From positions 1-64,000 of IMG/VR virus record IMGVR_UViG_3300025117_000050: a DNA stretch of 64,000 nucleotides, one strand, 5' to 3'. The position numbers and the translations under genes are program-made. The notes under the pieces are model-generated. The model had not been told where the DNA came from. It made no database searches and was given only the letters and a program-made list of their open reading frames with translations. This stretch comes from a virus. Within the stretch, counting starts at the first letter, position 1. The number at the start of each line of letters is the position of its first letter. Positions 1,557-63,469 of this stretch are shown here, piece by piece.

Positions 1557-2113
1557 AAAGGAGATATAAGTATGAATATAAAAGATTGTATTACTTGTGA
1601 ATACGCTCAAAGAGACAAACATAATAGATTTGTTGATCCATGTTTGGGATATAGCAATTGTTCTTACTCTGAATTTAAAGGAGAAATTAAACCTACTCTT
1701 AGAGAATGTATTGATACATTTAATAAAAATATAGTTAACACTGATGAAAATTATCTTTATAAAAAGGGATTTAGAGATGCACTTAAATTTATTAAAAATT
1801 GGGATGATGCTGAGTAAATAGTGGTTGCATTTATATTTTGATTGTGTTATAATGGATTATAAAGTTAAATGAGGAGGATACATAAATGAATTTAAGCAAA
1901 ATAAAATTTAATTTAACTAATATACCAATTGCATTTTGTCCTAGTTGCGGTAAAAAATTAAAAATAATAGAAACAGATTATTTAGAATCTGAAACTATAT
2001 GTAATAATTGTAAATTAAAGTGGTTAATTATATGGGATATAGATGATAATGATAATTACGGAGTAAAAGGATTTCAATGTAATAATGAAGATCGTTAATT
2101 TCAATTATAATAT

Positions 2114-2277
2114 TGTATAGCAAACGGTAAACCAGTGGGGATTATTTGATTTAGTAAGAGTCAACAGACAGGTACTCTGTTCCCAGGGAATCCATGCGAT
2201 AGATGAGAGGTGACATGGTAGAACTAAATTAGACCGTACCGTGAGTTGCTGGACGTAATCGGGTATTTTGCTATACA
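2114..2277 (+). ncRNA. putative structured non-coding RNA (~165 nt), family and strand unassigned
   Basis: GC-rich intergenic island closed by an 11-bp stem TGTATAGCAAA/TTTGCTATACA, with several internal complementary segments. Confidence 0.55.
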
Positions 2278-2310
2278 TTAATAAATAAAGATGCTAAAAT
2301 GATGATCTTA

Positions 2311-4452: not shown

Positions 4453-5463
4453 AAATTTCTTGTATTCTTTGTTGAATCGTGCTATAATTAGAATTATAAA
4501 ATAAATAATCAAGGAGATAATCTAATGACTCGAACATACAATGCTTATGAGATTAAGAAAAAATGTGAAAAACTATATTCTGATATTATCTGTTTTAATA
4601 TTTACAATTTACCTACAAAAAATGCACAATGGAAACTATATAATGAAAACTTAATAAAATAGTAAACGAGGTAGCAGGCGAATATGATAGTTTGAATATA
4701 TACGATGAAATATTCACAATTGGAGATAAAATTAAGATACATTACCTGGATATAAAAATTGCAATTATAAAGTCAATAACTGTAAAATATAATACTTGCA
4801 CATGGATGCCTGAATTTATCGTTGAGTCAATGGATATTCACGATAATAGTGTTTATAAAACTTCTTATGATACTTGTATTCACTTGGCATGAGAGATTAA
4901 GAAATGTTTTTTAATTATCGTAATATTTACCTTGATTTATATAAGTTCTAATGATAAAATAAAAATAAATGGAGGAATAGAACATGAAAACTAACAACTT
5001 AGAGGTCTTAAATATTCAAGATTTAATGTTTGCGAAGGTATTTGGAATGTCACAGGAAGAAATTGAGGAAATGGATTTATTTCAGCAAAAAAGGAAAATG
5101 CAAAATATGTTTGATAGAATGATGATTGAATGGAGTCAAGGTAATAAACCAGAATTAACACTAGAAGATGCACAGGAATTAGATAAAAAATATCAAAATA
5201 TAGTAGCACAGCTTGAATGTGAACACAATCATGATTATATGGGAGATTCATTAGTAAGATTTGAAGCAATCCCAAAAGATGATTATTCAATAGGATTATA
5301 TTTAGGGTTGCCAAGTGTAGTAGATTGGGCAAGTAAGATGTTAGATTAAAATAAATGAAAATCAACTAATTATTTCATCAAATACCTATTGCTTTTTAAT
5401 TAAAAGTGTGGTATTATATTTAACAGAATAAAAAAATAAATAAGAAAAAGGAGTTGCTGTTAA

Positions 5464-6666: not shown

Positions 6667-7263
6667 TAGAGAGGGTTAAATTCCCTCCCTATTCTTCTAA
6701 AATTTAAGGAGATGATATAATGAGTAATAATAATAAAGATAGTATCTACCTAGAAAATGGTTATAAGAATAGAGATGATTATTTACAATCTTTATCTGAG
6801 GATTACGGAGTACCTTTAGAATTTGTTTATAACCTTGCCGATTTATTAGGTGAGAGCGAAGAATGGGATGGCTTAATTTCAGCTTTAGAAGATGCAGAAG
6901 GAATGATTTATGATGAATAAGGGAGAAATAAACCTTCCCTATTAAAATAAAGGAGGCATGACAAAATGGAATTCACTTTAAATAGAAATACCCTTCTCAA
7001 ACTGAGCAATGATGAGATATTAGAATTGCTTAACAGTATAACAAATTTTGATTTATACTCAATGTCACTTGATTGGAGAGAATCAGCAGAGTATATTTTG
7101 AAATGCAAAGGTGCTGAAGGTGATGTTTTAGTTTACTGGAGTTGACTATAACAAATTAATTTAACAAAATCATAAAATAATAGTTGCTATGTGCCTAACA
7201 TAGTGTTACAATGAATATATAAATAATAATATATACAATACATAACACAAGGAGAGATATAAA

Positions 7264-7674
7264 ATGTGTAGAGCAAAACGATACACTGAACAATTACTAG
7301 AAATATATGATAACATTAATCAAGATTTAGAGTATTTCAATCATCAAATTAAAGAATATCAATTCTTAGAACAAGATGTATTACATATGATAGAAAATGA
7401 AAAGTTTAACGCAGCAGAAGGTTGTTTACTTGCTAATATGATTAAAGATGCCAGGATTAAGCGGAGATATTATAAAGATGAATTGGAAACAATGATTAAT
7501 TTAAAGAAGACATTTATTGATAAGAATATTGAACACTTAAAGTATACATATGACAGTGTTAAAAGACAAGATGAAATATTGTTAGAATTAAAAAGGAATA
7601 GGGTTTATAGACCAAGGGTGTTAAAGAGTATGGAATTGAAGAAAGTTGTGCCGTTGAAGAGAAAGGTGATATAA
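7264..7674 (+). CDS. hypothetical coiled-coil phage protein
   Basis: ORF with SD and its own promoter. Confidence 0.55.
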   Translation: MCRAKRYTEQLLEIYDNINQDLEYFNHQIKEYQFLEQDVLHMIENEKFNAAEGCLLANMIKDARIKRRYYKDELETMINLKKTFIDKNIEHLKYTYDSVKRQDEILLELKRNRVYRPRVLKSMELKKVVPLKRKVI

Positions 7675-8988
7675 TTAAAAATAAAAGGAGAATATATAAT
7701 GAATGTTAGAATTAATGAATGGATAAAAGGAACTATTATAACAGAAGAAGAAAATCTAAATTTACCAGTTCCACGTTTGGAAATAAGATATTTCAATATT
7801 AATGAAGATGGTAATAACCTTACAGCAATTTATAGTTTGATATATAAACATTTTCTAGGTGATTTAGTAAATGTAATTATGGGACAAACAAATTGTAGGT
7901 ATCCAAAACCTAATCCAATAGCAGAAAATGGAATAATAAAAACTCCATTTAAGGATGGAGTACATATAGAAAATGATAAGAAACAATTAAATTTACCTGC
8001 TTATGCAATTTATAAAGATAAATATCAGATTATTTGAAACATGATCAATCGATAATTTTATAAAATTATAAAATAAAAGGAGATAAATACATATGAATAA
8101 TCAATTAGTACCTGCTATTGCTTCAGTTTCACGGAATAGAATTTTAACAGAAAAAGAATTAGAATCTTATAAAAAATGTTGTATTAAGTTACCTAAAAAG
8201 GATATAGTTAAAAAAATATTATCATTTATTGAAAATAACAATGTTACACAAGAAGACAAAAAGGTATTTAATAAAATACTTGGTGATACTAAAATATTAA
8301 ATAAACTTCAAATTTGTACTGATGGGTCTTATGTTAATGGAAGAATCTTTTTTAAAAATTTCTATAACAATAATACAACTAATATATGGGTGGATGGAAA
8401 GTATTGGAATCAACATTATAAAAAACATAAATCTAATTTGGATACAATGTCTAAACTTAATTATATGAAATATAATTTTGAAGTTATATTTTTACACTTA
8501 GTTAGTGATAGTAAAGCATGGGAAGATAAATTAGATAGTGAACAATGGGAAGATGAATATGATGATTGGTGTTAAAAATTAATGTTGGTAACCATTGAAT
8601 TTATTGGGTTTGTGAATAGATAAATTGTAACAAAATGGTTAATTGGTCACAATTTAATAATAAATGGAGGTAAATAAAATGAAATTAGAATTAAAAGTTT
8701 ATAGTGCATTGCCTTGTGAGACAGAACAATTTATAATTAATGGTGTAGATTCTGATAAAAATTGGTTCGTTGATAATTATGATGATGGTAGAGGTGAAGA
8801 AATTGAATATGGATGCAATAATAGGGTAACTAAATTATTAAGAATTTCAGAAGTAAGAAACAATCTTCCAGAATCATTAAAAGAATTATCTGTTGAAGAA
8901 ATAGAAGAAATTCAAAATAAACTTGAAGAAGAATTAGTTAGTGGTGGTTGTGGTTGGTGCGTATAATATAAATTAGGAGGCTACATAT

Positions 8989-12011: not shown

Positions 12012-12889
12012 AATAAAGGAGTATAGTGTATATATGAAATTAATTGATATTGCTAACAAAATAGATAAATCTGAAAGAAATGAATCTTATGTAAATACTG
12101 ACCAATTTTCTTCAGAATTTAATTATGAATTTGATTGGGTAAAACAAGATAGACTTAAAGCATATTGGATTGGTAATTGGTATTGTACAGATTCTTATGT
12201 AGGGTATAGGATGTATTTTCTTGATGATGAACCTGTAGCATTTTCCATACAAAAAGGAAGAAAATGGTCTGAAAAATTTAATTGGATTAGTAAAGAATTA
12301 GCATTAAAAGTTAGAGAATATTTAATTTCTATTATGCCTAAAAGAGAAGATGAATTAAATATAAAAATATGTGATATTAACGAAGATATAGGAGATAGTT
12401 ATAAAATTGAATTTAATTCACAAATATTAAATCCTGATAATGCAATGCTTTATGGTGAATCAATTAAAATTTTAGAAAGAATAAAAGAAACACCAGATTG
12501 GGGAATAGATAAAATGTTAAAGATTCGATTAAGCAATGGAAAAGAAGAAATTGTAGACATAAAAGAATTAGATTTTAAGTATCATTTAGTATGAAAGGAA
12601 AGTGAAAAAATATGATATCATGGTTATTAAAATTATTTAAAATAAAACATGATGCTAAATGTCTAAATTGTAATGGAAAAGGTTATGTAAAATTTCAGGA
12701 TGGGTAGAAAGCACTTGTGGTTGTTGTTATGGCGCAGGTAAAATAAATAAACGAAGATACAATAAACCCTTAGAATATAAGGGTTTATTTTTATAATAAT
12801 TAACAAAATATTAAAATAAATATATTGACATTCAATTTCCCTTATGTTATTATTATAGAAAGAAACAAATAACAAGGAGGTATTACATA

Positions 12890-13141
12890 ATGACACAAGA
12901 ACAACAACAACAAGAAACAATCCTAAGCAAAGTTAAGAAATTATTAGCACTTGCAGAGAATAATACTTCGGCAGACGAATCACAAAATTCTTTTCTTAAA
13001 GCACAAATGCTACTCTTAAAACATGGTTTAACTATGAATGACGTTGCTGAATCTAAAGAAGATTATAGGTACAGAGGTATGAGTGAATTTGAAATAAATA
13101 ATATTTTTAATAATGGTAAAAAGGTTGCTAGATTTTATTAG
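12890..13141 (+). CDS. DUF2786 domain protein (short)
   Basis: ILSKVKKLLALA....ES...LKAQMLL.KHGL. Confidence 0.7.
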   Translation: MTQEQQQQETILSKVKKLLALAENNTSADESQNSFLKAQMLLLKHGLTMNDVAESKEDYRYRGMSEFEINNIFNNGKKVARFY

Positions 13142-15051
13142 GGAGGAATTAACATGTTAAGGTATTTACATTTACAATTTATTAAATTAAAATCACTAAT
13201 AAATAAAGATGTAATAATATGTGCCGTAGATAAAAAGGATAGTATGACTTATATTATTAAAAATGGTAGTATTGTAGACACTATTCCGATAAGTAATGAT
13301 ATAATTAGAGGCAAGAGAAGTAAGATACCATTATTTTATGATTTTGAATTTGATAAAGAGAATCTAAATAAAGTAATTAAAGAATACATAATTTAATAAA
13401 AGGAGAGATTAAATATGGCAATGGTAGACTATGGAGCAGTTTTAAAGAAGAATGGAATAGTAATTCACAGAGATGATTTCTTTATGGATATGCAAAAAGC
13501 TGTTGGATTTACTATTGATTCATTAAAAGATAAAGATGGTTATAATTATCAAATTAATGGCAACTATTTTGTATACATTGGTGATGAAGAATTATTGATT
13601 TGTGTATACAAAACACAATTGTTAATTATCTCAAATAACAAAATTATACATCGTGTATATGGTGCTAATGTTGATTCTTATAGTATACATGATAAATTTA
13701 GATTAAAATTTGAAGTTAATGGAATTAAATTTGATATAAAAAGAATAAGTTATAGTAATATGTATTTGCTTAGATTCTGGTATAAAAGGAATCTTTATGA
13801 ATGTATTTATGGTTATGGTGTTGATAATAGTGTAAAGAATTGGTATTACAATAATAATAGAGAAAGAAGAATTGCTAAAGAATTTTTTAGAAATAAGTCT
13901 TGGAAAATATTAACATAAAAGATTAAATTACTTTTAACTTAAAAACATTATAAAGGAGAGATAATATTATGTATTTAAGTATAACCTTTACTGATTATAA
14001 TAAAATAACAATGAATATAATTAGATTTACTTGCAATGAAAATGAAATCTTAAATAGAAATAATATGTACAATTGTTTTATAGTTGGAGATAATTACATA
14101 AAATGAAAGGCAATATGTTTGATATAGAATATTATGTAAAAAATGTTAGGGTATTTACAGTATAGAGAGGATGAATTAACATAAATAATGCTCAGGAAAT
14201 ATTAAGAAAGATTGTTAATTTCATAGATGATTATTATAAAATAGCACCTATATTTTATAAAACATGGTTAGATAAATATGGGGTTAATAATCTTAATTTT
14301 ATAAACTATATAATTTTTGAAGAAGAAAATGAGTATATTGAAGAATATTTAAATTATTGTTTATATATGCTTGAAGAATGTGAAAAACAATATCCTAAAG
14401 GTAGTGAAATTATAGGATTTCAAATTGCTGATATTATGAGAATGATGGCAGAAAGTAAAGAATTAAATGAAATATAATATAGAGGAGGAATACATATGTT
14501 GGTAGATATTAACTTTAGACAATCTCTAATCAATGAGTATAGAAAGAAAATTGAAGAGCATTGTACACCTGAAAGATTTGAAGAAATTAAAAATAGCATA
14601 CCTAGAAATCTTGATGACATATTTCATAAAATAAATACAGGTATATATTATAGTGGATTAAATTTCGATCATAGAATTAAAATGCTTTCAAATGATAAAA
14701 TTAAAGATAAATATGAAAGTTTTACTTTTATGAAACGTATAAATGGAAAAGTAGATTGGAATTACATTCGTAAATGTATTAATGAAGGAAAAGAACATAA
14801 AGATAATTACGGTGTATGTGATAATTATCAACAAGTTTTAAATCACTATCCAGAATTAAATGATCCTAATAGAAAATTTATATTATCTTTATGTAAAATT
14901 AGTAAGAAAGAAGATGGTGGTTGGCGATGGCATAAGTGGGGTAAATATATAGGTATTCAAAAATCGCAATGTGAGTATATCGGTGATGAACCTGAGATTG
15001 AAGAAGTATATGTGTATCATATTTATGAAATGGAATAGGAGGAAGTACATA

Positions 15052-15450: not shown

Positions 15451-17146
15451 GATAAATTTATTAATAAAGAAAAGTTTGGAGAGGAGAATTAATATGAATA
15501 AAGATTTAATTAATAAAGCAATTGATGTAATGGAAAGAGTTAAGATAGGGTCTTTAATTAGATTACATGGCATTCATGATTTTAGAGTAGTATATCAAGA
15601 ACCAAGTTATGAAGAAATATATGGTTGTTGTAAAATTCCCAGAGATCATGTAATTAGAATGGTTAACCAAACTATTCCTAATGCTTTAAACTGGACAAAA
15701 TCTAAATCAATAGATAGACTTAAAATAGAAATGGTGCAAAGTGCCGTAGCAGGTTTGTATAAAGATATTGAATTAATTGAAGAATAAAAGGAATAAGAAT
15801 GAAACAAAATTTAGATTAATATAATATATTCAGGGAGGATGAAATATGCTAAGTTTTAAAACAACTAATGAAACAGTTATAGATATGTATAAAGGCAAGA
15901 CATTCATTGAAACAAATATAAAATTATTCACAGAAATTAATGATGATTTGAAGAAGAAATTTTTTGGTAGGATAGATTTAATTGAAGATATTCTAAAAGC
16001 AATTAATATTAAAATGAAGAAATTGTTATGAATAATTTAGAAGATAATACGGATATTGCTGAAATATTATCTTGCATAAGAGGTAAATTGTAATTTCATA
16101 ATCTCACAAAGTATTGATTTTATTGGGTTTATAAAATTAAAAATCAATACAAATGAGAGTATTTATTCAAACTTTAAAGGAGGAAAATTAAAATGACAAA
16201 ATACGTGTTAAAAACAAATAGTAATTATTATGGAGATGGTTACATAAAAGAGTTTTATAATAATTATGGTGCACGTGATGATTTTCATGTAAGTAGTAAT
16301 ATTTTTGATGCAACTATCTATGATACAATTAGTAAAGCTAAAAATGGTATTAAATATTGCTTAAATATTATTGATGGTTATAATAATATGGATTCTGATT
16401 ATGTGAGAGATAATAAATTAGATTCAAAAAAGTTTCCTAAGATATGGTTAGATATATTTGAGGTGGAATTAACAGAAAAGAAAATTGATACTAAACAAAA
16501 GGAGGTTGGTTAAGGAAAAGAATGAGTTAAGGAAGGAATTTAAAAAGATGTTTGAACTGATAAAGGAGAGAAATACATAATGAGAGATAAAGAATTTTTC
16601 CATGATAGAAATAATGATATTTATTATTTAGTTAATTTTCAAGAAGAAAGATATATGAAAATAGCAGAAAAAGGAAGTCAATACTATGAATTATGCAGAC
16701 ATTTATATTGTAATAATTGGGAATATGCATATATCAGACATAAAATATTATCCACATTTAAGAAGGTAGATAAATTGATACAGATCGATGGGACAGAAGA
16801 TTAAGAAAATATAAAATAAAGGTGGTAATATGTATGAGATGTTATAATACTAATGGTCGTGGATATTTTGTAGTATTAAAAACTCCAAATGAGATAATTA
16901 ATTTGTTGAATAAATTGTGACATACATACACAATAGGGAAACATCATGTATTTTCAAAGGAAAATAATTATGTAATATTTATTAATAGTCATTCTCTTAA
17001 TCTAGCAGATCGAGTAGCAAATATATGGATTGAATCAATTTTAGGTAAATTTGAAATATTAGATACTTACAATGAATGTAAACTTAAAGATGTTGGTAAG
17101 TATTGGTGATATATAAATTGAAAAATAAAAAGGAGGATAAATTTTA

Positions 17147-26465: not shown

Positions 26466-27640
26466 TATTTGACCTCCTTAGTAATTGTTAAGTTGAATTA
26501 TATCATAAATTGGTAGCAATGAGTGGATTTTTATCATAATATAAAATACATATAATAGGAGGAATATATTATGTCATCAAAAATAGATTACGAAAGAGAG
26601 AAAATGATTAAAAGTATAATAGAAATTTTCAGTCAAGGTGAAATAACAATAAATCAAATGAAAGAAGAAATAAATAATGTATTAAGAAAAGCAGATATTG
26701 AATTAGATAATATGTTCGAGGAAGATAGAATAATTAGACTAGATAGTTTATTAAGAGAATTAAAAGACAAATATTTACAAATATCAAATGGTACACATAA
26801 TGTATTTGAAGTAGATCCAATATGTATTGATAATATAATTAATAATTATAAGGATGTATTAATTACTTCAGATTTATATATTAATGGATTTATTAGCATT
26901 GGAAATATATCTCAAACAATGCGAAATATTAAAGATATTTATTCTACTAATAATTGGCTTGGAGTATCATGGAATTATGAAAATTGTGAAAGAGGTAAAT
27001 TTTATATTAAATTAAAAGATGTTAATAAAATTAAAGTAAATATAAGTTGTGAAACAATTTTATCATTTGATTTTTATGTTAACGATAAGAATTATACAAT
27101 GTTAAGTTTTAGACAAATAGGCAAGTGAAAAGGAGAACAATTAAATGCAAAAACATTGTATTTACAAATTAAAAGATAGTAAATCGACAGGTTATATGGA
27201 AGAATCGCTTAGTGAATATGTTATAGTAGAAGAATTTGCAACAAATCCTTTAGATAGTGATAAAATTATGCAATGTGTTTATAAGCATATCATTCCTGAA
27301 ACTATGAAATATACTAGTATGATACTTGGATATTGTGTTTTACCATGCAATGTGTTTGAAAATTATTTTGAGTTATATATGGAAACTTTTGAAATTAATG
27401 AGAAACTTAGAGAGTTAGGAATAGAATAATAAAAACATTAAAATAAAAGGAGTAGATTAATTATGCGTATAGTCATTGACAACAAATTATATTTCAAATC
27501 AATTAATGTATCATCTAAAACATCTAAACTAACTAAATTTCGTGAGAAACTATTTAATGTAATATCAAAAGTTTGGCCTTGGGCGTTGACATTAGTAATG
27601 TTTCTTGGATTGGCAGTATTGGGTTTGAGGTGTTTTTAAT

Positions 27641-28755: not shown

Positions 28756-30631
28756 AAAGTTGAATAAGTTTGCTTTATATTGTTAATTTTACATAAGGAG
28801 ATTGATATTATGCGTTGGAAACAAATTTTAATATGTATGTTGCTCAGTATGTTATTAGGATATTTAAATCAATATTTCAAATTAATCACAGTTGATTACA
28901 ATGTGAAATATATGATAGATTCAAGTTTAATATTTATGTGTATAATGTTTTTATTGTCAATGTTTGATTTTTATTATAGTAAATATTGGTATCCTAAGAA
29001 TGAATGGGAGGTGCTTAAACAGAAAAATAAAAAAGCAAAAGGAGATAAATAAATTATGATTATAAATACAATAAAAGACTTAAATGGTTGTGTAAGAGAT
29101 AATTATCCTTGTAAATATTTATCAGGTTATTTAAGTTTAGAACCTATAATGGTAAGATGTAATTTTAGAGGAAATGAATGTGGAAGAGGGTATTGTTGTT
29201 TTTATCGTTCTGGTAATAAGAATGTAGATGAAATTATTAGAGAAGAAAAAGGAGAATAGAATATGAAATCTACTGAAGAAAACTTTCCATATTGCTATAA
29301 TGGAACTAATTGTTGTATTATTGACTATGAAAAAGGTAAAGGTGACTTAGTAATTATCACAAATGATTATGGTGAAATAATGTATAGAGGTTATTGCCAA
29401 TTTGTTGATAAATTTCTTGATGATTTAAAGTCAGGTGTTTTTGCTTAAAATTATGTTTTATTTTAATATCAAATAAAAAAGGAGAGATTAAATATGGCAA
29501 TATGGATAGAAGGAAAGGCATTCATACCAGAAATAAGTGATGAAAAATTAAATAGTTTAATTGAAAAAATTGTTCCTGTAGTAAAAGAAAATGATAAATT
29601 GTATCAGATTGAAATTCCTAATTTGCGTAATATAGCATACACATGGGAACCAAAAATAATTAAAGAATGTGATAATTTAAAAGAGATTAAAAGAATAAAA
29701 ACTCATCATTATTGTGGATATTACGGTATGTTTAAACCAAGTATTGCAGAAGTATTATCTCAAATTCCAGAAGATTTGATTGATAAAGTAAATGCTTTTG
29801 AAATTATTAATGATGTTAATTCTGGGACTGATACAGAAATAAAAATATTTAGAGAAGGTAATGGTCATTTAGCAATTACTATATTGTATGAAAAATCATT
29901 ATAAAATATTAAAGGAGGAAAATAATAATGGGACATATGACTACATTAACATTTCTTAATGATGGATTTGACCAAATTGAGGAATATCCAGAACAGTTTA
30001 TTGAGGCAATTAAATTAGGTATGTACGGAATTGATAAACATAATAGAAATTCTAATAGAAAGTTTATAACTACTCATGGTATTGGATATCATGGAAATTT
30101 AGTAGAAGTTGCTAAATCTCATCATGCAGATGATTATAGATTGTATTTAGTTGGTAGAAATGCAATGACCACATTTGGGTATGCAAATGAGATTGATAAT
30201 ATTAAATATAGAAAAGAATTAGTAGAAATGGCAAAATGGATTATTAAAGATGAAGAAAAGAGGATTAAGGAATTAGAGGAAAAGATATTAAAAGGAGAAT
30301 AATTATGCAAACATTTTATGTAATATTATTAATTATATTATTTGGTATTATATCAGGATTATCAGGTGGTTGGATGCTTGGGTATGTTTTAGTTAAAGAA
30401 ATGAGAAGATTTGAAAAGAAATATAAACATTTATTTGTTGAAGGAGATAAATAAAATGAATAAATATAATTGCCCTCATTGTAATACAGAAATGATGCCA
30501 ATGACACAAGAAGAAAATTGTATACAAGAATATAAATATTCTACTTGTGGTTTTAGTGATTTATATGATAGTTTACCTGTCGAGGAATGGGAAGATGGTA
30601 TGGATAAATTTATGAAATGTTTAAAATTAAC

Positions 30632-33296: not shown

Positions 33297-36293
33297 AATA
33301 CATAAATAAATTATAAATAAAATACACAATAAAAGGAGAATTAACTATATGAATTTAACAAAAGAAGATAAATTATTAATATTAAAGGCATTTGAAGTCA
33401 AAGACTATGAATGTGGTTTAGAAGAAAGAGAAAAGAAAATAATGTTGGATATTGCTAAAGAATTAAATATAAAAAGATGCGGATACAATGAAGATACACA
33501 GTACGTAGAATGTCCTGTTGAAGATTTTGATTGTGAAAAATGCAAATATTATGTGGAATATTTTATATCTACAGATAGAGAAATATAAATAATGAGATGA
33601 ATTTATTATGAAAACTAATATTATGAAAGTTAATTATATGCATACTGATAAATCTCCTGACTGATATATTTGGAATGCATTTTGTGATGAGTGTGGTAAA
33701 CAATTTAGAAATCATAAAATTTATAGTAGCAGTAAACCAGACAAAAGTGAAAAGGATTATTGTTTAGATTGTATGAGGGAAATGATTGATAATAAAATTA
33801 ATAATAAAGGAGCAGAAAATACATATGAAAAATATTGATAAAATAAGATTGAAACTACAAGAAGATTTAGATGATAAAATTAAACATATATTAGAAAATG
33901 AATGTCCGTTTCATTATGATTTAAAAGGTTTTGAAGATGATAATGATGAAAGATGTTATGAAAATAATAAAGATAAAGAAAGTTGTAAAAAATGTTGGGA
34001 TTTAGAAGACATAGAAGAATAAAAAAATGTAAGTCGTTAGCAAACAAATCTTTGCTCGTGATTCCAGTAGTAAATATTAGGAGAAATATATGCAGACTAA
34101 AAAACTCAATTCATTAATTAAAAGATTAGATTACAAAAATTTAAGTAAGAAAAAGAAAAGAAAATGTTTGCAAGAGATTAATATAATAGAACAAAAAGAA
34201 TCTAACAAAGAAAGAAAATTAAAAATGGAAAATAAAAATCTATGGGACATTGAAGATATTATAAAACAATTAGCATTAGATGAATATGATAAAATAGGTT
34301 TATTTGAAACAAGTAAATATCTAAAAATATCTCAAGATAAAGTATTAGAATGTTTTATTTATTTATCAGAAAGAGATTATCCTAAACTTAATATTAAAAT
34401 TTTAATTACTTGTCCAATACATAGAGAAGTATTATATTCTTATGATTTAAACAAAGGATTAAATCAAATACAGCCTCAATACTATTGTCATTATTGCGAA
34501 GATATTATAGATGTAAATGCTGAATATGTATATCTACAATTTTTAATTGATAAAAATTATTTAAAATTTGCTAAAGAATGTAGAAGAAAAAGGAAATTAG
34601 AAAAGGCAAAAGAGTTAGCAAAATATATTAATCGGAAAACTGAAGAAGCAGGATTAACTTATGAAGAGATTCAAGAAGATGTGTATAGAGCATGGTTAGA
34701 GATTAGAAAAGAAAAAGAAGAAAATAAATAATTAATAGGAGGATGAAATTATATGAAAAAGTTTTATTTAGATGATGGTTGTTTCTATTGTAATAAAGAA
34801 GTTGATAGTACACTACATGAAACACATACCGAAGTAAGAACTTTAACAAAGTATGATGTAGAATTTGGGAGAATACAAAAACCTAGTATTATAAATAGAC
34901 TTAAGGATAATTATCTTTATTTAGTTTGTTCTTGTGGAGAAATTGAGGACATTTCAGGTGAATTTATGATTAAAGATGATCATATTATGAAAAGAAAAAG
35001 AAGGTGAATAATTTATGAAATCTATTACATTTATTAGTGCAGTATTTGACTATGATAATAAACATAATATGGAATGTTTAGGCATATTAGATGAAAATAA
35101 TGATGAAATTATAGGAACAATTTATTTTGATAATAATTTTGGAAATGAAGAATTTCTTAAAAATTATGCAATTGTTAAAATAGAAAGAAAAGATAAAGGA
35201 GAGAAATAAATTGATTTCTATTGATAAAACAAGGCAACTCAAAGAATTAGGATTAGTATGGAATCCTCAATGTGGTGATTGGTATAAAATAGATTATTGG
35301 CCTACACCTATTTTATTAACTATAGATATATCAAGATTAGATGATAAAGAAATTGAATGTGTAATAGAAAATGTTAAGAATAATACTTGGTTGCCTAGAT
35401 TAGATCAAATGTTAGATGAAATTAAAAAATATAATTGGACTTATGCATTATATAGTGAAAATAAAATAGAAATTGAAATTGAAACACGTATCGAGTATGT
35501 ATCAATAATTGATAGGCATAGAAATTTTAAAGGCAATATAATAGAGAATGTAATTGCAGATGCTTTGATTTATATATTAGGAAAAGAGAAGGAGAAAATA
35601 TGATTATACGTGAATTAGACGAACAAGAATGTATTAATGATTTTGGATATAAATATATTATGCTAGATGAATTAATTAAAGATAATATTTTATATATGTA
35701 TGATTTAATTGATAAATGTGATGAGTGTGGTCTTTGTTGGATGAATGAAGAAGAAATTGATTGGTATATAGAAAAGACAAGAAAATTTTAAATTATAACT
35801 AAAGTTTAGTTTGGTGATAATATTAAGGAGATTTTTATTATGAGAGACAAAATAAGATTTCATTTTAGTTCAGGTTGTTATTTTGATAATTTTATGAAAG
35901 ATTTTATAGAAAAAATAAAAAATAGTATTAATAAAAAAGATATATTATTTGAGTATAAAAATATTTTAGTATATAAATCAAGCAATACAGAGGTATCTAT
36001 TTCTAATACAGGTTTTGATGTATATTTTTTGGAAATTGAAGAAATAAATATTCAAGAAAATACTAATATATTACTGCAAGAACATAAAAAATTAAAAGAC
36101 TTATATGAACATTATCCAAAAATATATGAATTTACAATATTCACAAATCAAAATTATTGTGACAAGATAAGAAAACAATTAATAAAATTAAAAGCTGATT
36201 TTACTGAAAATAATTTTAAATCTTTTGATGAAATGACATATACTTTTCACGTATATACTAAAATAAAATTTTTTGAGTAAGGAGGAAAATATT

Positions 36294-39587: not shown

Positions 39588-40037
39588 GTGATTTTAATGA
39601 TTATTAAAACTCAAACTGCTAATGCTGTTAATGCTCAATGTTATAGGAAAGAGGAAGAGGTTGATTGGAGGTCGTGGTGTCCTAAACGTGGAGAGATTTA
39701 TTTGTGTCAGTTAGGAAATGAAGGTTTATTATATTCAGAAATTAAGGGTTATCGTCCAGTTTTAATAGCATCAAATGATATAGCGAACAGGCATAGCCCA
39801 GTAGTTACTATAATTCCATTAACTTCCAGTCAAATAAAAAATAACTTACCTGTTCATGTTAAAGTAGGGGTAGAAGAAGGGTTGCGAAATTTGAGTTTAA
39901 TTTGTTGCGAGCAGACTAAAACTGTGTCAAAAAATAGAATGTTTATAAACGGTAGTTTAGTTAAAATATGCAAATTAAGTAATGAATTAATGTGTAAAGT
40001 GGACAACGCATTAAAAATACAATTCGGATTAGTTTAA
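39588..40037 (+). CDS. mazF: MazF/PemK (NdoA-like) endoribonuclease, orphan
   Basis: KRGEIY..L..SE..GYRPVLI.SND..N..SP.V..IPLTS...LP.HV...EQ..TVSK.R...KVDNALKIQFGL; catalytic Arg and Thr present. Confidence 0.92.
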   Translation: MILMIIKTQTANAVNAQCYRKEEEVDWRSWCPKRGEIYLCQLGNEGLLYSEIKGYRPVLIASNDIANRHSPVVTIIPLTSSQIKNNLPVHVKVGVEEGLRNLSLICCEQTKTVSKNRMFINGSLVKICKLSNELMCKVDNALKIQFGLV

Positions 40038-43332: not shown

Positions 43333-44229
43333 ATGTCAATATTATTTGGTAAGAAGAATGTATTAAAACCTACTTCTACAAATTCTATTTCTGAAATAAC
43401 AAAGAAAGAGTTAGCTTACAATATAAGAGTTGCCGTAGGTCATCGAAGTATTACTCAAGTCTGTAATATATTAAAAATGGTCGATCCAAAACCATTAGTT
43501 GACTTAATAAAAATGAATTATAATGAATTACCTGATAGACAATTACTTAGAAAAATTGCATCTGCAAGCGAAGGTAGGGTTTCTTATCAAAACCTTTATT
43601 CTGTCTGCGGTTATTCCGAATTTGATTCTGAAGAAGATCGTAGTTGGGCAAAGTGGGTTCCTGAACGTGGTAGTTGTTATATGATTGATTTAGGATGGAA
43701 TATGGATAGTGAGCAAAATTCTGTGCGTCCGGCAATAGTGATGCAAAACAACAAAGGCAATCAATACTCAGGAACAACCGTTATTATCCCTATATCTTCT
43801 CGTTCTAAAAAATTTTCTTCACAGATTCATGTATTATTAGAAAAAGAATTAGGATTTTTACGGGAATGTCAATGTTTTCCAGAACAAATTCGCTGTGTTT
43901 CAAAAAGGAGGTTCTTCTATAATTCTGTACCTTATAAAATCACTACTTTACCAGAACATAAATTATTAGAAATCAAAAACGCACTTGAGTTTGAACTAGG
44001 TTTTGAGCCTTTATATTTTGACGAAGAAAAAATATTTAAATTAATTTCTCATATTCGTTCTTTAGAAAATAATATTAAAATCAAAAAATCACATAATCTA
44101 ATTGATATATTAAATCAAAAAATGGATGATCTAAAAGAATACTGTTCAAAATATCATAAGAATCACAAGATTATCTTACAAGAATACGATAGAATCAACA
44201 ATTGCGGTTACAATGCAGTATCCATATAA
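43333..44229 (+). CDS. XRE-like HTH-MazF/PemK fusion with C-terminal helical extension
   Basis: N-terminal ELA..IR.AVG.RSI......P....LRKIA.AS...VSY..L...CGY; middle ERGSCY.IDL....SEQ..VRPAIV.QN..GN.YS....IPISS..IHV...EQIR.VSK.R. Confidence 0.85.
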   Translation: MSILFGKKNVLKPTSTNSISEITKKELAYNIRVAVGHRSITQVCNILKMVDPKPLVDLIKMNYNELPDRQLLRKIASASEGRVSYQNLYSVCGYSEFDSEEDRSWAKWVPERGSCYMIDLGWNMDSEQNSVRPAIVMQNNKGNQYSGTTVIIPISSRSKKFSSQIHVLLEKELGFLRECQCFPEQIRCVSKRRFFYNSVPYKITTLPEHKLLEIKNALEFELGFEPLYFDEEKIFKLISHIRSLENNIKIKKSHNLIDILNQKMDDLKEYCSKYHKNHKIILQEYDRINNCGYNAVSI

Positions 44230-53216: not shown

Positions 53217-56200
53217 ATATGATTTTGATTGTAAAAAATTATTTACATACTAACAAAACAGAACCAGTTAGATTGTGTTTTACAGAAATTGAAGCACATC
53301 AATGGATAAAAGAAAATGAACCAGAAATAGGTATTGTGTATAGGTATATAAATTATTAGATGATCAAAATAGTATTTATATTGAAATTTAACAAATATAT
53401 AAAGGAGAGAATATTATGATAAGATTAAGAGATATTTATTTAAATGAAGGAGAATTATTAGTCGTTTATTTAAAATGTTTTGATGGTACATTTGAGAGAG
53501 TAGAAATAAGTGTTGATAAAGATTGCAATAAAGAAATTAAACATGGTATAAGTGTTACTGGAAGATGTATTTTAGGATTAAATAATAATTATAAAAAGGA
53601 GAATAATCTATGAAAAATAAATGCGAATGTTGCGATAAACTTGTAGAGCAAGAATGGGAATTATTTCAAAGTGGAAATTGTAAAATTTGTGGTGATTGTG
53701 CTATTAAAGAAATTATGATAGTTCATGGTGTTTCTGAAAATGAAGCATATCATATTCTTGAGAGAATTCAATTTGGAAATGGATATGGGTATTAAGGAGG
53801 TTAATAGGCATGGAAGATATGATTAAACAAACTAATTCTATTAATAAATGTATTTGTCCGTATTGTAATGTAATGTTTTATGTTTACCCACCACCAGCAC
53901 ATGGTCAGGATAAAATTATAGTATGTTCTTCATGTAAAAAAAGAAATTAAAGTTACAGCTACAATTGAATTTACGTGCTATACTATTAAAGACCAATCAA
54001 AATCTACAACTCCTGTGATGAAAGAAAATAAATGTAATGATTATGACTATGAAAGAGAAATGTATTTAGCAGGACATAGGGATGCTTATAGGAATTTTGC
54101 AAGAAAAATATTTTAAGGAGAAAATTATTATGGAGATAAATGAAATAGAAAAACATTTAATTACTATATATGGAGAGAATGTATTTGAAGAAATGTTTAA
54201 TGAAGTTAAGTATTTAAAGAAATATTCAAATATTACTTTTGACCAAAAATATATAAAACTAAGTTTATCTTTTTGTGCTATAAAAGCAGAGCAAATAATT
54301 AATGGTGAAAAGAAAAAATGTAGTTTACGGTCATTGGTTAGTGAAAGTTTTGGAGAGGCAGAAATATATAGGAGTAATGTTTGTGGTGGTGTATTGTAAT
54401 TTATAAACGAAGATATGTTTTAAGGAGGATTTTAATATGAATGCAATTAAAGCAAGAATATTATTAGAACAAATAAAACCAACTCATCTAAATAATAAAA
54501 ATATGACAGAAACAATTAACCTAGCAATTCAAGCATTAAATAAACAAATACCAACAAGTCCAAAAATACAATCTTATTGCCCTGCGCTATGTCCTTCGTG
54601 TGGTAATGAATTGAGTGAAGATTTAGATGATGGGTATTATAAACATTATTATGGTTTAAGTATTTGCGAGTGTGGACAAAAATTGAAATGGAGTGATTAA
54701 TTAATTTAGGAGGAAATTTATATGACTGATGAATTATATGATGATTTAAAATTATTCGTATTAGTTAGAGATTATCTTAAAAAAGATAGTCAAAAATGTA
54801 TTAGAAATATTGGTGCATGTAACGAATGTGGTTTATGTTGGATGAGTGAAGATGAAATATTTTATCTTTTAGGGTATTTTAATGCTTGACAAATTAACAA
54901 AATATAAATATAATAATAAACAAAAGAAGGAGTAAATAAATATGAACAAACAAATTAGATTCTTAAAATGTAGTAATTGTGGATATGAAGATAGTTCTAT
55001 TCTTACAATGTCTTTACCTATCGGGAATGGCATATTAAAATGTCATAATTGCAAAGAAGAAGTTAAATTTAATGAATTTTATTGTGAACAAGGCAAAGGA
55101 ATGACATTTAAAGAATATGCTGAATTACTTAAATACATAGTAGATAATCATGGGTGGAGAAATTTTCTTAAAGAAGGTTCAAAACATATCAAATATATGA
55201 GAAATTCATTTGATACTAGGACGAATTTAATATTTTCTATTCAATTAGATAATGAGGATTTTACAATTGTAAATCAGAATAGACATAGAAATTTAAAAGA
55301 ATGGATTTATGAGTATTTGAAAAGTTAATAGAATAATAAATATAAAGGAGATTCAATGGATAATATAATCAATAATTTTATTTGTAGTAAGTGTAATGGA
55401 ACATCTGTATTTATTAAAAAGACTAATACACAAACAGGTTTGTATTGTTCTAAATGTGGTAAGTGGATTAAATGGTTAGGAAAAGAAGAAATTAGGTTAT
55501 ATGAAAGACAATTGGAAATAGACAAAATGAAGTCTGAAGTAGTTATGGAAGTAGAAGAACCTGAAATATAAATTAGTTTATCGCAATTTAGTAATGAAGA
55601 ATTGATTGATGAAATTAGAAAAAGAATGAATTAAAATATTAAAAAAATAAAGGAGAAAAATACATATGAACGACAATGATAATATTACTAGTATTTTTAG
55701 AGGAACAGTAGCAAGAAAAATATTTAGAGTTGTAAATAGATATTCACAATATAATATATACCATGATAAACCATACATACAAGGATATAAAGAGTTTATT
55801 AAACATGATATATTTTATAAGTGTGAAATAGAAAGACCACCGTTTGAAGCAGGTGAAAAGGTTTATATAAATGATCTTGATTTAACAGTTACAATTAAAG
55901 AAGCAATTAGAAGTACAAATGGAGAATATGTTTATAATACAGATTATTATTATGATATTATTGAAGATGAAAAAACTAAAGAATCTAAAATAGAAGCAGA
56001 AAAAATGTTAAAAGAAGAATTAATTAAATATAATGAATGTTTATCACAGCAATTAAAGCGAAATAAAAAGTGGTATCAGTTTTGGAAATAAATAGGAGGT
56101 ATACATATGACTAGAGAAGAAACAATTAATAAAATAAATGAAGTAAAAGCAATGAATTTACCACATATGAGTTATGCAAAACTAAAAGAATATTATGGTA

Positions 56201-57786: not shown

Positions 57787-60220
57787 TTAATGAATTGTCA
57801 CTTCTGTAATAATATTAGAAAGGAGGTTAGTAATCTGAAAGGAAAAATTAAATTAAAACTACATGATAGAGATTATACTAAATGGTTAGAAATATATCTT
57901 AAAATGGAAGATGAATGGTTTTATTGGCATTCTGGTACTATTGTTAGTCATTGGGATAAGACAGAGGAAGAATTCTATGATGCAGTAATTAAATATCTAT
58001 CAGATGTTAATAATATAAAAATGTCTGGAGAAGAATTAATGAGAGAGGTTATTGAAAATAAAATGAAAAATGCAAAAAATAATAATAAAGATAAAATAGT
58101 AAAAGATATGTTAAAGAAACTTAAAGAACCAATTGAGATTGAAGTGAAAATGTAATAGTATAAAAAATAAATATAATAAAGGAGACATGTATTATGAATT
58201 TAAATCACAAGGGTAGAAAAGTAAGGATTATCAACACTAAAGGTTTCATCAGAGATGATTATAAATATTTAGAAAAGTATATTGATCAAACAGGAATCAT
58301 CAGATATGATTATGGGAAAGGTAGTGAACATAGATTATCAATTAAATTTGATGATGAAATATTAGATAATATAAATGATAATAATGGAAGATTATGTTTT
58401 AGGATTGATAGTGTTGAGTTTATTGATGATACATATGTGAAACCTTTAGAAAATGATAGTAAATTAAATATAAATCATGCTAAATTAGGTGATATTGTAG
58501 AATTATCAAATGGTTTAAAAATGGAAATATGTGAAGATGAAAAATATCCACAATGCTATAGGACAGTGGATATATCTACAAAAGAAAATGTAACAACAAT
58601 AATATCAAAACATAGTTTGAAAACATATTGTATAGGTAATAAAGTTTGGGGGATATGGTTCAGATAAATTTAAAATAGTAAATATTAAACGTGAAGAACA
58701 AAAAGTTAAAAACAAAGATATTAAAGAAAAGAAAAATAAATTAGAATCAAAAACAAAACAAAAACCAACAAATAAAGTATATACATATGAAATGATGCCA
58801 CATAAAATCAATTGGAAAATAACGCATAATGGTGAAATCATAAATCAAACGATTGATTCAGGCAATGAATCATATAAATTAATTATCAATGGAAATACTA
58901 CTATTGTTATTTTAGATGATGGATGCAAGGGTGTGGCAAAATGTTTACCTAGTAATGAGTATGATTTGGATAAAGGTGTAGATATCGCTTATACAAAAGC
59001 AATTATTAAGAGTAATCAGAAAAAGTTAAAAGGATTAGTTAGATAAAATAATTAATTAAAATAAAATTATGAAAAATTTAGGTAAAGAAGCGAAAGATAA
59101 AATTACAGGATTTGAAGGTATCATTATTGGTAAGATTAATTATTTATTCGGTTGTGCTCAATATGGAATTGCACCAAAAAGCAAAGATGGAAAAATAAAT
59201 GATACTAATTGGTTTGACGAAGGAAGAATTGAAATTATCGGGAATGGTATTGTTCCTGAAGAAGTTAAGGTAGAAAAGAATGGTGGAGTGAATAGGGATT
59301 GTCCTAGATAGGTACTTGACAGAATATAAATATAATCGTATAATATAATCAGTTATTAAATAATAAAACTTACGAAAGGAGGAAAATACATATGATTGAT
59401 ATAGAACATAAAAACGAACCTAAAGTTAAAATTGATTTTGCTTACACTGACGAATTCGACAATAATAGTAGACTTATCAAAACACTTATGAAAGTAGATT
59501 CAAACATTCAAACTCAATTAGAATTATTAATAGAAGAATTTAAATGTTTTTTAATGGGTGTTGGATTTTCGCCTGAAACAGTTGATGCTATACAGATTGT
59601 AGAGAATTAGATTAAATATTAGAAAGGATAAATATGAATAAAATTATATTTGAAAATGGTAGTGAAGTAAAAATAGTTGAATCTGCATCTACTTTTAGAA
59701 GTAAGAGAAGTGAATTGATTAGTTTTTATTGTACAGAATGTAGAGATATGCATATAGATGTTCCTATATCAGAAATGTTGCATATTAAAGATGATATTTT
59801 TATATGTAAAACAAGTTTTGAAAATAATTTATATCAATATTTTACTGAAGAATCATATTTATATTTACCACCGAAAGAAAATTAAGTTGTTATCAATCTT
59901 ATCTTTGGTTTTAATTTAATAAACAAAAAAAGGAGAAAATGAATATGTATAAAATTAAAATAGAAAATAATAATAATTCTAAAAAAATAGAAATACCAGA
60001 AACACCATTCTTTCTATCTCATTGTGATGGTAAAAGTTATTATATTGTTTCAAAAAATTCAGATAAAGATAGATATTTATTAACTGCTGTTGACAATGGA
60101 ATTACATATGATAATAATTATGTAGGAAAACAAGTTTATAATAATTTAAATAATGGCACTTGGATATTGCATGAATCTAAAATTGTAATAATTTAATAAA
60201 CAAAAAAAGAGATTGAAAAT

Positions 60221-60976
60221 ATGTACGATTATTATGAAGAACCACCTTATTATGAACCAACTTTAGCGGATGAAATTTTAATAGAATATCAACAAAAAAT
60301 GAAAGATGCTTTGTTAGATAGTGTTAAGTCACAAATTGAGAATATCAAGGATGAAAATGTAAGATTAAAAGAAGAAAATGGAAACTATAAACAACGTGAA
60401 AGAGATATTATAAATAAAGAAAATGATTTAAAATACAAAGAAGAAAATCTTAAAAGAGAAGTTACTAATGAATTTTATCAAAGTAATATTGGTGATACTT
60501 TAAAGCAATATGTAGAAGAGTGTGAAGTATGGTTTGCTGATATAAATCGTTATCAAAATGAAAAATGTAATTTATGTAACGAAGAAAGAAAATTAGTTGC
60601 AAATTTTCCAAATGGTGAAATTATTAAAACTGCATGTGCTTGTGCAAAAATGTTAAGTAAATATGTTCCTGCTATAAGCACAACTACAATGATTAAATTT
60701 AGTAAACGAGATAGTAGGTATTCTTCAGAAAGAATATTTTATTTTAGTAGAAGTTATTCTCCTAATAATGATAGAAATAGTTATGATTATGATTATCAAG
60801 AATTTAAAATATATCATGTTGTTAATGAATTTAATGAAAGTATTATTGAATTGCATAAAAATAAATCATATGGCGAGAGACTAGGATTTAAAAGCAAAGA
60901 AGAATGTCAGAAGTATTGTGACTGGCTGAATAAAAAAGATGATAATTGCGAAGAAATTGAATTAGATGATGAATAA
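60221..60976 (+). CDS. hypothetical phage protein, coiled coil plus CxxC
   Basis: ORF; C-terminal F.SKEECQKYCDWLN. Confidence 0.6.
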   Translation: MYDYYEEPPYYEPTLADEILIEYQQKMKDALLDSVKSQIENIKDENVRLKEENGNYKQRERDIINKENDLKYKEENLKREVTNEFYQSNIGDTLKQYVEECEVWFADINRYQNEKCNLCNEERKLVANFPNGEIIKTACACAKMLSKYVPAISTTTMIKFSKRDSRYSSERIFYFSRSYSPNNDRNSYDYDYQEFKIYHVVNEFNESIIELHKNKSYGERLGFKSKEECQKYCDWLNKKDDNCEEIELDDE

Positions 60977-63469
60977 AAGGAGCATAAATACATGATCGTT
61001 AAAATAGGAAACACTTATTACAATTCCACAGAACAATTAATATTACTAATACTTAGCAAAGAAGAAAAATCTCATATTGCTAATATGGAAGAAAATAAAA
61101 AGAAATATTTATCTTTTCCTAGTGATTATAATATAAATAATGCTAAGATGATTTTAGAAAATGTACCTGAGTGGATACTTAAGTGTATTGATTGTTAGAA
61201 TATAAAAATAAATAAGGTATAAAATAAATAGTAAAGGAGAATATATTATGTCAGAATATATAGATAAAGTAGTAAAAGTAATAAATACAGATGGATTTCA
61301 ATTTCAAGACAGTAATGAATTAGAAATGTACATAGGTAAAATAGGAATAATTAAAATTGATCATAATTATGGATTTAGAAATAGATTTATTGTAGAATTT
61401 TATGATAAAAATGTAAATGATATTGATAATCAAAAAGGTAAAATATGTTTTGCTATAGATAATTTAGAGTTTATAGGTAAAAATGAAGAAAAAGATAAAG
61501 AAGATGTAAATGATAATACTTTACCAGATGATAATATAAATAAAAATAATTTGCAAGACATAATTAAACAAATGCTAAATGTAATAGGTGACTACGAAGG
61601 AAGTAAAATATCAATGGGTATTTGGCCTCCAAATGAAATATATTTTTTAGTTTATGAAACTGAAGCATTAATTGAAATAGATAAAAAAGAAAAATGTGCT
61701 TATTTAAATACTGATACAATGACACATCATTTGACTAGTAGTATGTTAGATGAATTGAATCAGATTGTTAAAATAATTGATGATAATATTGATGTTATTT
61801 TAGAGTGTGTAAAATAGTAATACATTATAACGTATTATTATTAAATAAAATATAAAAAAGAAAAGGAGAAATGAAAACATGAACGAATTATTAACTAGTT
61901 TATTGGAGAATCCAGAGGCATTAAAAGAAATGATTAAAGAACAAGTAGGTCAGTACAAACCATTAGTTTATATGATTGGGACAGAATTATTAGAAGTTTA
62001 TAAAGACTTCGCAAATAATACTGAATATTTTATTGTCAAAGCAAAAGTAAGAAAGAATCAATTTGATGCATATGTTGAAGTAGGATTTACAAAAGAACAA
62101 GCAATGATGTTTTTACTTGCTGATATGGATAGTATGAAAAAATCAATTAGTAATGTTACAAACAGTGTAGGGAATAAGAGTAAAAAAGAAAAATAAAATG
62201 ATACATATTATATGTTGTGGTTGATGTCTATTATAACCACAACATATAGTTAAATGTTTGAATAAAATGAATGTTTTGAGATGAAACTAAAAAGGAGTAG
62301 AAATAATATGTCATTAAAACACTACAAATATAATAATAACCAATGTATTATTAATAATCATTCAGAATCATAAAATTATTAAAATGGTTTTTACATCATG
62401 GAGCAGAAAATTATTGTGGTGGAGATATTCCAATGTTTAATAATTTATATGATATGTTAGATGAATTAGATGTAATATATAAGAATTTTAATTATGAAAG
62501 TGACAATGAAGATGATTCTTATCTAATAAATGATGTTTCTGAATTAGAAGAATTCTTATTAAATAATATTAATGAAAATACATTAATTCCATCAGAAGAT
62601 GAATATCCTATATTAGTATCATGGTATAGAGTGGAAAGTTTTGATAGACATGGAGATGTTAGTATTAAATTAATGAATTTTACTTCTATGAAGGAAATTA
62701 AAAGTGTGAATGATTTTATTGATGAATATAAAAAATAAATAGAATGGAGAAATAATATAAAACATGAATAAAAACTTTATAATCGAATGTATTGATATCG
62801 TAGAACAAATAAAATTAAATTCAATAGTAGCAATAACTAAGGATAACGAAGAATTAAAATATCAACTTAAATATGATGAAGAATTTAAAGATTTAAATTT
62901 AGAATGTTTAGACAAAGAAAATGAAATATGGGATTTTGGTGATACGATAGAAAATGTTAAAGAAGGGTTAGTATGTGATGCTGTTAGATATAAATATCAG
63001 AAAATAAGATTAATAAAGGAGGATTAATATTATGATTGATAAATCATGTTATACTTGTAAAAGTGCTAATTTATCAAAGGACAAATTTCCTTGCAATAAA
63101 TGTCATAATCAGAATAATTGGAGTTATAGATTCGATGTTCAATTATTATGTTTAGTCGGAGTAGGTATAATAGTTGCTGGATTTATATTGTTATAGTAAT
63201 AATAAAATAAGTTAATAAGGAGGAATAATACATAATATGAAAGTTAAAATTTTAAAAATTAAGAATAGTATTTCTAAAAGAAAAATTGGAGAAATAATTG
63301 AAGCAAAGAGACTTTATGAATTAACCAATGAAGAATTAGAAGAATCTATAGGTTATATTCCTAATGATGAATCGTTATGGGAGAAGAATGATATATTTAT
63401 CCATGAAGAAGGAAATTATTATGTATATATGCTTGAAAATGAAATAGAGATTATTGGAGAATAATTTTA

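Follow-up and report, generated by a model that had tools for sequence, protein, structure and literature searches.

Why does a single six-base word recur between the Shine-Dalgarno (SD) sequence and the start codon in so many genes of one phage, and what might it do there? The question is raised by the first 64 kb (64,000 nucleotides, hereafter the window) of the 96.7-kb IMG/VR virus record IMGVR_UViG_3300025117_000050, a sequence of 25% GC for which CheckV estimates a completeness of approximately 49% and in which the + strand holds all gene calls but one. The word is TACATA. Its concentration in the spacers between SD and ATG is real and position-specific, and we think it rather probable, judging from the sequence patterns described below, that these spacer hexamers are cut sites for the toxin-antitoxin RNase MazF (EndoA in Bacillus subtilis), which would uncouple the SD from the open reading frame (ORF) and so silence each such cistron individually.

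Genes were called with a simple SD-scoring rule that gave the TACATA motif no role in the choice of start, resulting in 158 genes in the whole record and 126 in the window. Expected counts were obtained from a null in which each alignment column is shuffled among genes, which preserves the position-specific base composition round the start codon. In the window, TACAT lies within -13..+3 of 13 genes compared to 2.44 expected (sd 1.46; highest of 2,000 shuffles 8), and TACATA in 12 compared to 0.78 expected (highest of 2,000 shuffles 6). Over the whole record the corresponding figures are 15 against 2.9 (z 7.5) and 14 against 0.99, two further spacer sites lying past the window at 73879 and 76708. 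An earlier note on this DNA had listed 15 coordinates for TACAT, 13 of them in initiation regions; the pentamer is present at all 15 and an ATG at every start that was named, the anticipated excess over shuffled spacers is borne out by the window count above, and the control words TAGAT, TTCAT and AACAT show no enrichment. The count and placement of the 13 genes stand, except that only 12 are of the enriched kind, because at 60989 the word is TACATG, which runs into the ATG and as a class shows no enrichment. The two remaining TACAT, described as lying just 5' of the SD at 7239 and 26547, both exist, and there is a third at 28790, but there is no clear enrichment upstream of the SD.

In what follows, G000 denotes the present record and G001, G010, G012 and G013 are related metagenomic phages. 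A profile from -100 to +100 round the starts of the 441 genes of G000 and G001 contains 30 TACATA in -10..-1 and 1–10 (typically about 5) in each other 10-nt bin, that is, a single sharp peak with no general rise in non-coding sequence.

The enriched unit proved to be the hexamer and not the pentamer named in the earlier note; the sites are real, and TACAT in spacers nearly always has an A next. No other 6-mer in -10..+3, not even a word of the SD, ranks as high as TACATA in any of the five phages, and their unique initiation regions, 1,259 when pooled, contain it 70 times compared to 6.8 expected (10x, z ~25). Single-base variants of TACATA lie between 0 and 1.4x in 16 of 18 cases, the two exceptions being CACATA (3 against 0.9 expected) and TACACA (5 against 1.3), which reach 3–4x on very few sites. 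Pooled counts for TACATG (7 against 11.9), TACATT (3 against 3.4) and TACATC (1 against 0.5) show no enrichment. The reverse complement TATGTA is not enriched next to start codons in the five phages, in keeping with a signal in RNA. Beyond the hexamer the sites have nothing in common in their flanks, and between 0 and 9 nt separate the SD core from the motif. Enrichment is 8–20x at each offset from -8 to -5; offset -5 is used by 33 of the 70 pooled sites, at a ratio of 8x compared to 12–20x at -6, -7 and -8. The form TACATATG is commonest because the A of the ATG provides the sixth base, and since the null model accounts for the excess of this offset, the idea of a special anchoring at -5 was dropped.

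This pattern matches a known RNase. In vivo end mapping in B. subtilis found that EndoA cuts U/ACAUA, and UACAU only if an A comes next (PMC11780869), and a preprint of 2026 describes U/ACAUA as a hexamer to which the MazFs of B. subtilis and L. monocytogenes adhere strictly and as the preferred site of S. aureus MazF (bioRxiv 10.64898/2026.08.06.743204). The spacer sites are the exact hexamer UACAUA on the transcribed strand, with A required as the sixth base, and our scan of variants, which draws on nucleotide sequence only, reproduces the EndoA rule established in vivo. The earlier description of UACAU as a Bacillus-type MazF site is thus right in that the motif matches the EndoA/MazF hexamer, and needs amendment in that the bare pentamer is insufficient and an A must follow (PMC11780869).

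In the mechanism that we propose, the enzyme would be the chromosomal MazF of the host, the two MazF homologues of the phage, or both. A cut after the first U of a spacer site would detach the SD from its cistron and leave the remainder as a 5'-OH stub (ACAUA...AUG); the cut cistron would no longer be initiated, and its neighbours in the polycistronic RNA would remain uncut at their own initiation regions. Some 5–10% of the phage's genes, mostly small and without assigned function, would be silenced together by MazF activity, and by analogy with phi3T the effect would bear on the choice between lysis and lysogeny. MazF activity tips phi3T towards lysogeny, and two antitoxins of that phage, AimX and YosL, set the lytic programme free (PMC10769878). 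We infer the occurrence of cleavage, the enzyme responsible, the off-switch outcome and its timing. Structure prediction, which is prediction only, gives the sites an unpaired probability of 0.60 compared to 0.50 for the same positions in other genes (p = 0.01).

Spacer sites occupy approximately 5–10% of genes in the present phage and its relatives, about 10x chance. Besides G000, which has two phage PemK/MazF genes, the signal is present in G001 (two; 16 spacer TACATA against 1.73 expected), G010 (one; 11 against 1.44), G012 (two; 17 against 1.41) and G013 (two; 12 against 1.53), together with Geobacillus virus E3 (NC_029073.1; two PemK-like domains at 29723-31113; 7 against 0.65) and Psychrobacillus phage Perkons (one PemK/MazF gene; 4 against 0.54). 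SPbeta, which has no phage PemK/MazF, holds 3 sites against 0.35 expected, and phi3T, which is absent from the MazF-homologue matches in GenBank phages (a search made with no Pfam-model scan), holds 4 against 0.36; the sites of the two are shared, and one phi3T site is not at an annotated start. In 80 IMG/VR family loci with 1,823 unique initiation regions there are 42 sites compared to 6.2 expected. The signal is absent from G009 (1 against 0.66), G002 (0 against 0.16) and G003 (1 against 0.65), which are AT-rich relatives of equal GC, all without a phage mazF.

The phage's own enzymes are encoded in the window, as the earlier note had recognised: it contains two PemK/MazF domains, one in mazF1 (39597..40037, + strand; 146 amino acids (aa); PemK_toxin E 4.8e-23; nearest to B. 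subtilis EndoA and S. aureus MazF among solved structures) and one in mazF2 (43333..44229, + strand; 298 aa), where it covers residues 111-219 between N- and C-terminal extensions. Against the PemK_toxin model (PF02452) MazF1 and MazF2 score 81.9 and 63 bits, above the curated cut-off of 23.1, and the best solved matches of both are EndoA, S. aureus MazF (SaMazF) and B. anthracis PemK (E 5e-16 and 1.5e-14). As judged from the alignments (PDB 4MDX, 4MZM), identity to EndoA and SaMazF is approximately 35–40%. MazF1 has an N-terminal extension of 28 aa, and MazF2 is fused to further domains (a helix-turn-helix (HTH)-MazF fusion). Of the catalytic pair Arg25/Thr48 (B. subtilis numbering), MazF1 has both, while MazF2 has Arg and Ser, so that the hydroxyl is kept; the catalytic Arg is invariant in 9 aligned phage MazF domains. 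The SaMazF side chains that read UACAU are S18, Q20, T47, K52, L55, H58, F68, S72, E77 and Q78 (PMC4041440). MazF1 keeps eight of these ten, and in MazF2, compared at the nine positions other than F68, S, Q, K, H, E and Q are kept, which makes UACAUA specificity of the two phage proteins plausible on the residues compared. There is no recognisable MazE beside either mazF gene. A host MazF is present in all five of the prophage-carrying host genomes checked, and the host enzyme is an equally good candidate.

Several observations weigh against gene silencing by cleavage in the spacer, or against its dependence on the phages' own enzymes. In S. aureus no more than a single gene was found to be cut near its start codon (PMC7913683). 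With approximately 1 TACATA per kb in the ORFs of the present record, many transcripts would be cut whether or not they had a spacer site. The base contacts are incompletely conserved, with Gln replaced by Ile and Phe by Leu in MazF1, and with T to S (at the catalytic position), L to S and S to C in MazF2. Eubacterium segne carries an SPbeta-like prophage in which two MazF-like genes are accompanied by only 1–2 sites in 181 genes; the contig with this prophage served as stand-in for a host-gene control, and as the prophage also lacks the signal the control is uninformative. Nor is there spacer enrichment in three small MazF-encoding phages (two of Lachnospiraceae, one of Clostridium) or in MT835478 (102 kb, carrying MazF; 1 against 0.21 expected). 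The presence of mazF within 10 kb of the gene for a 686-aa protein failed as a predictor, the site rate being 2.5% with and 2.1% without it in 58 full-length family loci. The genomes with and without MazF come from few independent lineages. Given these exceptions and the result for the 58 loci, the link between the spacer signal and a phage-borne mazF is suggestive but not established.

The sites turn over rapidly between relatives. G000 and G001 have approximately 50 orthologues in common, at about 64% identity, but of the 15 G000 genes whose initiation window contains TACAT, no more than 2 have an orthologue in G001, whose own enrichment thus comes from other genes. A comparison of six genomes gives 19 clusters of orthologues with a TACATA site. 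About six of these keep it in two or more members, in some cases with the offset changed, and each of the others has it in a single member. All four G009 orthologues lack the site. Because so few of the site genes have G001 orthologues, so few clusters keep the site and the G009 orthologues are without it, the comparison of sequences points to continuing selection rather than inheritance. Site genes lack an orthologue in 13 of 15 cases compared to 107 of 158 overall, a trend only. Neither gene size nor upstream intergenic distance of the site genes shows a pattern by eye, and the idea of a bias towards genes at the head of operons was dropped. One alignment captures turnover of another kind: window 14900-15140 and G001 4775-5015 are approximately 88% identical through ...GGAGGAA(G/T)TACATAATG, after which similarity ends and the ORF differs, so that on this alignment the initiation region stayed while the ORF was replaced, with the mosaic junction exactly at the start codon.

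Rapid turnover is also what would be seen if MazF sites were selected without regard to position, each cistron needing at least one U/ACAUA, with ordinary mRNA decay as the result and no dedicated switch. The spacer would then simply be the cheapest place to acquire a site, since it is A/T-rich, a single change gives TACATATG and there is no codon constraint; the excess of offset -5, for which the null accounts, agrees with this. TACATA is indeed enriched in the ORFs of the record (70 compared to 41.7 expected under codon permutation), and the 14 genes with a spacer site contain just 1 internal TACATA where 3.1 are expected, compared to 69 against 38.6 in the other ORFs, which hints at one site per cistron. 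However, intergenic DNA outside -16..0 is equally unconstrained and has TACATA at only 1.0–2.6x, compared to approximately 10x in the spacer, and a preference for cheap sites would not produce the one sharp peak without a general rise in non-coding sequence. We therefore regard position-neutral selection as unlikely.

A second alternative accepts cleavage in the spacer and reverses its outcome: the products would be leaderless mRNAs that are still translated, or translated better, when MazF is active. Cutting of the commonest form UACAUAUG followed by 5' trimming of 2+2 nt would leave an RNA that begins exactly at AUG, and nearly half of the pooled sites (33 of 70) stand at the required offset of -5. 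Trimming of this kind has some basis in B. subtilis, as 5' ends 2 and 4 nt downstream of EndoA cuts have been mapped where the motif is followed by U or C (PMC11780869), and the leaderless-mRNA model for E. coli offers a precedent (PMC5001579). The ratio at -5 (8x) is nevertheless not above that at -6, -7 and -8 (12–20x), where trimming exposes no AUG, and the analysis in PMC7913683 also disfavours this outcome; we consider it improbable.

The hexamer might instead be bound and not cut, an RNA-binding repressor occluding the initiation region as T4 RegA does. The candidate would be the HTH-MazF fusion, if its change of Thr to Ser at the catalytic position impairs cleavage; the extra domains of MazF2 and the location of the motif, where a bound protein would block the 30S subunit, fit such a role, and sequence statistics alone cannot separate binding from cutting. 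Against it, the catalytic Arg is invariant in 9 of 9 phage MazF domains and the Thr/Ser hydroxyl is kept, neither REGB_T4 (PF10715) nor RegA (PF01818) has a match at E <= 1 in the 96.7-kb record (~49% complete), and the signal is present in SPbeta and phi3T, for which no phage MazF was found in the comparisons given above. Repression by binding appears to us about as improbable as the production of leaderless mRNAs. Least probable of all is a cause other than MazF, whether a start-codon context preferred by the host, an artefact of composition, or a short junction sequence that recombination spreads along gene boundaries. G000/G001 homology does end exactly after TACATAATG at 15052, with the initiation region retained and the ORF swapped. 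Against such a cause, the motif is missing from E. segne host genes and from all three of the relatives with equal GC, the hexamer recurs in Bacillus, Geobacillus and Psychrobacillus phages and in two metagenomic clades, 16 of 18 one-base variants show no enrichment and the remaining two have just 3–5 sites, the flanks have nothing in common beyond the hexamer, and the odds that the top non-SD hexamer would be a known MazF motif are approximately 1 in 4,096.

To return to silencing by cleavage between SD and ORF, we offer a further idea tentatively and think it may well not hold: that U/ACAUA in the spacer acts as a movable 'MazF tag' evolved by SPbeta-like phages, enrolling cistrons, most of them small, fast-evolving and without assigned function, into a regulon silenced by a phage MazF under the control of an Agr-type quorum signal. 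If true, the 'MazF tag' would work like RegB, with a toxin-antitoxin RNase as the switch and the choice between lysis and lysogeny as its output.

T4 RegB cuts GGAG inside the Shine-Dalgarno sequences of early mRNAs. The arrangement proposed here resembles it in that a sequence-specific cut in the initiation regions of a subset of phage genes would serve as a post-transcriptional shut-off. It differs in protein family, which is unrelated, in the target, which is a spacer hexamer and not the SD, and in that the enzyme would be an RNase of the toxin-antitoxin type that is present in the host too.

A close biological parallel lies in SPbeta and phi3T and their MazF-arbitrium interplay: the phage family and the RNase motif are the same, and there is ORF-level enrichment in the present record as well. 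Enrichment of UACAU in the ORFs of SPbeta and phi3T is published (bioRxiv 10.1101/2023.04.27.537455), as the earlier note had said; what is added here is the concentration in spacers. The published analysis counts sites per ORF, not by position, whereas the enrichment here is approximately 10x in the 8–10 nt between SD and AUG. In SPbeta and phi3T the spacer signal is weak (3/0.35 and 4/0.36). Where it is strongest, the phages have mazF genes of their own beside one of the AgrB family and, unlike these two, do not depend on the host enzyme alone.

Literature searches returned no description of the hexamer concentrated in SD-AUG spacers, so the earlier note's remark that it knew of no such positional targeting is upheld in this respect, with the qualification that there are two precedents for the concept, T4 RegB with its cuts in initiation regions and, in E. 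coli, the leaderless-mRNA or 'MazF regulon' model (PMC5001579; contested in PMC7913683). The E. coli model likewise has MazF sites just upstream of the AUG in a defined subset of mRNAs. Its site is the 3-nt ACA, which has little statistical weight, and it proposes activation via specialised ribosomes, whereas here the motif is a strict 6-nt word enriched 10-fold in phage genomes, with offsets that do not favour a precise leaderless design. Compared to B. subtilis EndoA and S. aureus MazF, the phage proteins keep the catalytic Arg and most of the UACAU-contact residues, but they are only ~35–40% identical, MazF1 is extended, MazF2 is fused, and there is no recognisable adjacent MazE.

The interplay between MazF and phages of the SPbeta family is under active study, and a 10-fold concentration exact to the hexamer yields a short list of candidate target cistrons. 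Some are in tractable systems: a yonT-like gene and a dUTPase gene in SPbeta and phi3T, and seven genes in Geobacillus virus E3, a cultured SPbeta-like phage suitable for testing. The phi3T spacers concerned belong to the yonT-like gene (55920), phi3T_70 (58231) and the dUTPase gene (117388). The pattern suggests that a toxin-antitoxin RNase can be a gene-specific translational regulator and not a global mRNA shredder, and it offers a simple means of predicting from sequence which genes of uncultured phages are sensitive to MazF.

The 12 spacer sites of the window, all on the + strand, precede mostly short ORFs. Those with TACATA set apart from the ATG include 1879..1884 (ORF 1886-2098; 70 aa, zinc-ribbon-like), 8982..8987 (ORF 8989-9648; 219 aa, phrog_19090) and 12884..12889 (ORF 12890-13141; 83 aa, DUF2786), as well as two with TACATAATG, namely 15046..15051 (ORF 15052-15450; 132 aa), where G001 homology stops exactly after the ATG, and 16574..16579 (ORF 16580-16804; 74 aa). 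At 63229..63234 (ORF 63237-63464; 75 aa) the form is TACATAATATG, and the G001 orthologue has TACATATG, the motif being kept and the offset moved. TACATA abuts the ATG, as TACATATG, at 8088..8093 (ORF 8093-8575; 160 aa), whose G013 orthologue has TACATA at another offset, and the same form is found at 14491..14496 (ORF 14496-15038; 180 aa, phrog_18298), where the G001 orthologue keeps the motif despite a different SD; at 33820..33825 (ORF 33825-34022; 65 aa), the sole spacer site in the conserved 20–39.5 kb core; at 55661..55666 (ORF 55666-56091; 141 aa, phrog_19492); at 56102..56107 (ORF 56107-56496; 129 aa); and at 59387..59392 (ORF 59392-59610; 72 aa), where the motif is present in the G010 orthologue too. 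The TACATG at 60989..60993 (+ strand) overlaps the ATG of ORF 60992-61198 and, having the pentamer only, stands outside the enriched class.

Three further TACATA on the + strand lie just 5' of an SD, at 7239..7244 (ORF 7264-7674), 26547..26552 (ORF 26571-27128) and, abutting the SD as TACATAAGGAG, 28790..28795 (ORF 28810-29052), the last of which was absent from the earlier list. A cut at 7239 would leave the SD joined to the ORF. Some intergenic TACATA (window 24871 and 45901) have a TTGACA on one side and a TATAAT-like box on the other, as in the sequence that precedes the yopQ-like gene; to judge by these boxes, they may lie inside promoter spacers upstream of the transcription start, and hence be absent from the RNA.

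The present phage is a large temperate phage of the SPbeta-like kind. It has a repression module of the YopQ/YopR (MrpR) type, in which a protein with an MrpR N-terminal domain (MrpR_N_CB E 4.2e-13) adjoins a YopQ-like protein that matches those of phi3T, SPbeta, Geobacillus virus E3 and Psychrobacillus phage Perkons at 25–27% identity (phi3T 27%). The YopQ-like protein had no match in a scan of genome contigs. Directly 5' of the yopQ-like and mrpR-like genes (window 39597-49279) are the two mazF genes, an AgrB-family gene (44627-45421), a DUF5317 gene and a DUF7487 gene. At the corresponding locus position, just upstream of yopQ/yopR-like genes, phi3T carries aimR-aimP-aimX where the present phages have their own mazF genes.

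Genes of this locus differ in their load of the pentamer. The DUF5317 gene (window 41583-42176) is the most TACAT-loaded gene of the record, with 6 TACAT in 594 nt compared to 1.8 expected, a number reached in none of 300 codon permutations. The yopQ-like, mrpR-like and HNH-repeat genes (window 45960-49279) contain none where 3.3 are expected, or, with the two mazF genes added, 0 against 5.1 (P = 0.003); the corresponding count in G001 is 2 against 7.8. Depletion of TACAT in the repressor operon and mazF was rejected as a general feature, since it fails in G010, G012 and G013.

Two other parts of the window deserve mention. Positions 30000-36000 have no megablast match among GenBank phages, and the 686-aa protein encoded at 30766-32826, which is without a Pfam match, is 57–78% identical across approximately 260 IMG/VR phage contigs and 44–68% identical in prophage-like regions of bacteria as diverse as Siminovitchia, Paenibacillaceae, Oceanobacillus, Lachnospiraceae, and metagenome-assembled genomes of Treponema and Sericytochromatia. 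Such conservation is unusually strong for a phage protein without assigned function, and the prophage matches span many phyla. Finally, window 5464-6666 encodes a 400-aa protein with a GmrSD N-terminal domain (E 2e-15), which may be the product of a restriction or defence gene.

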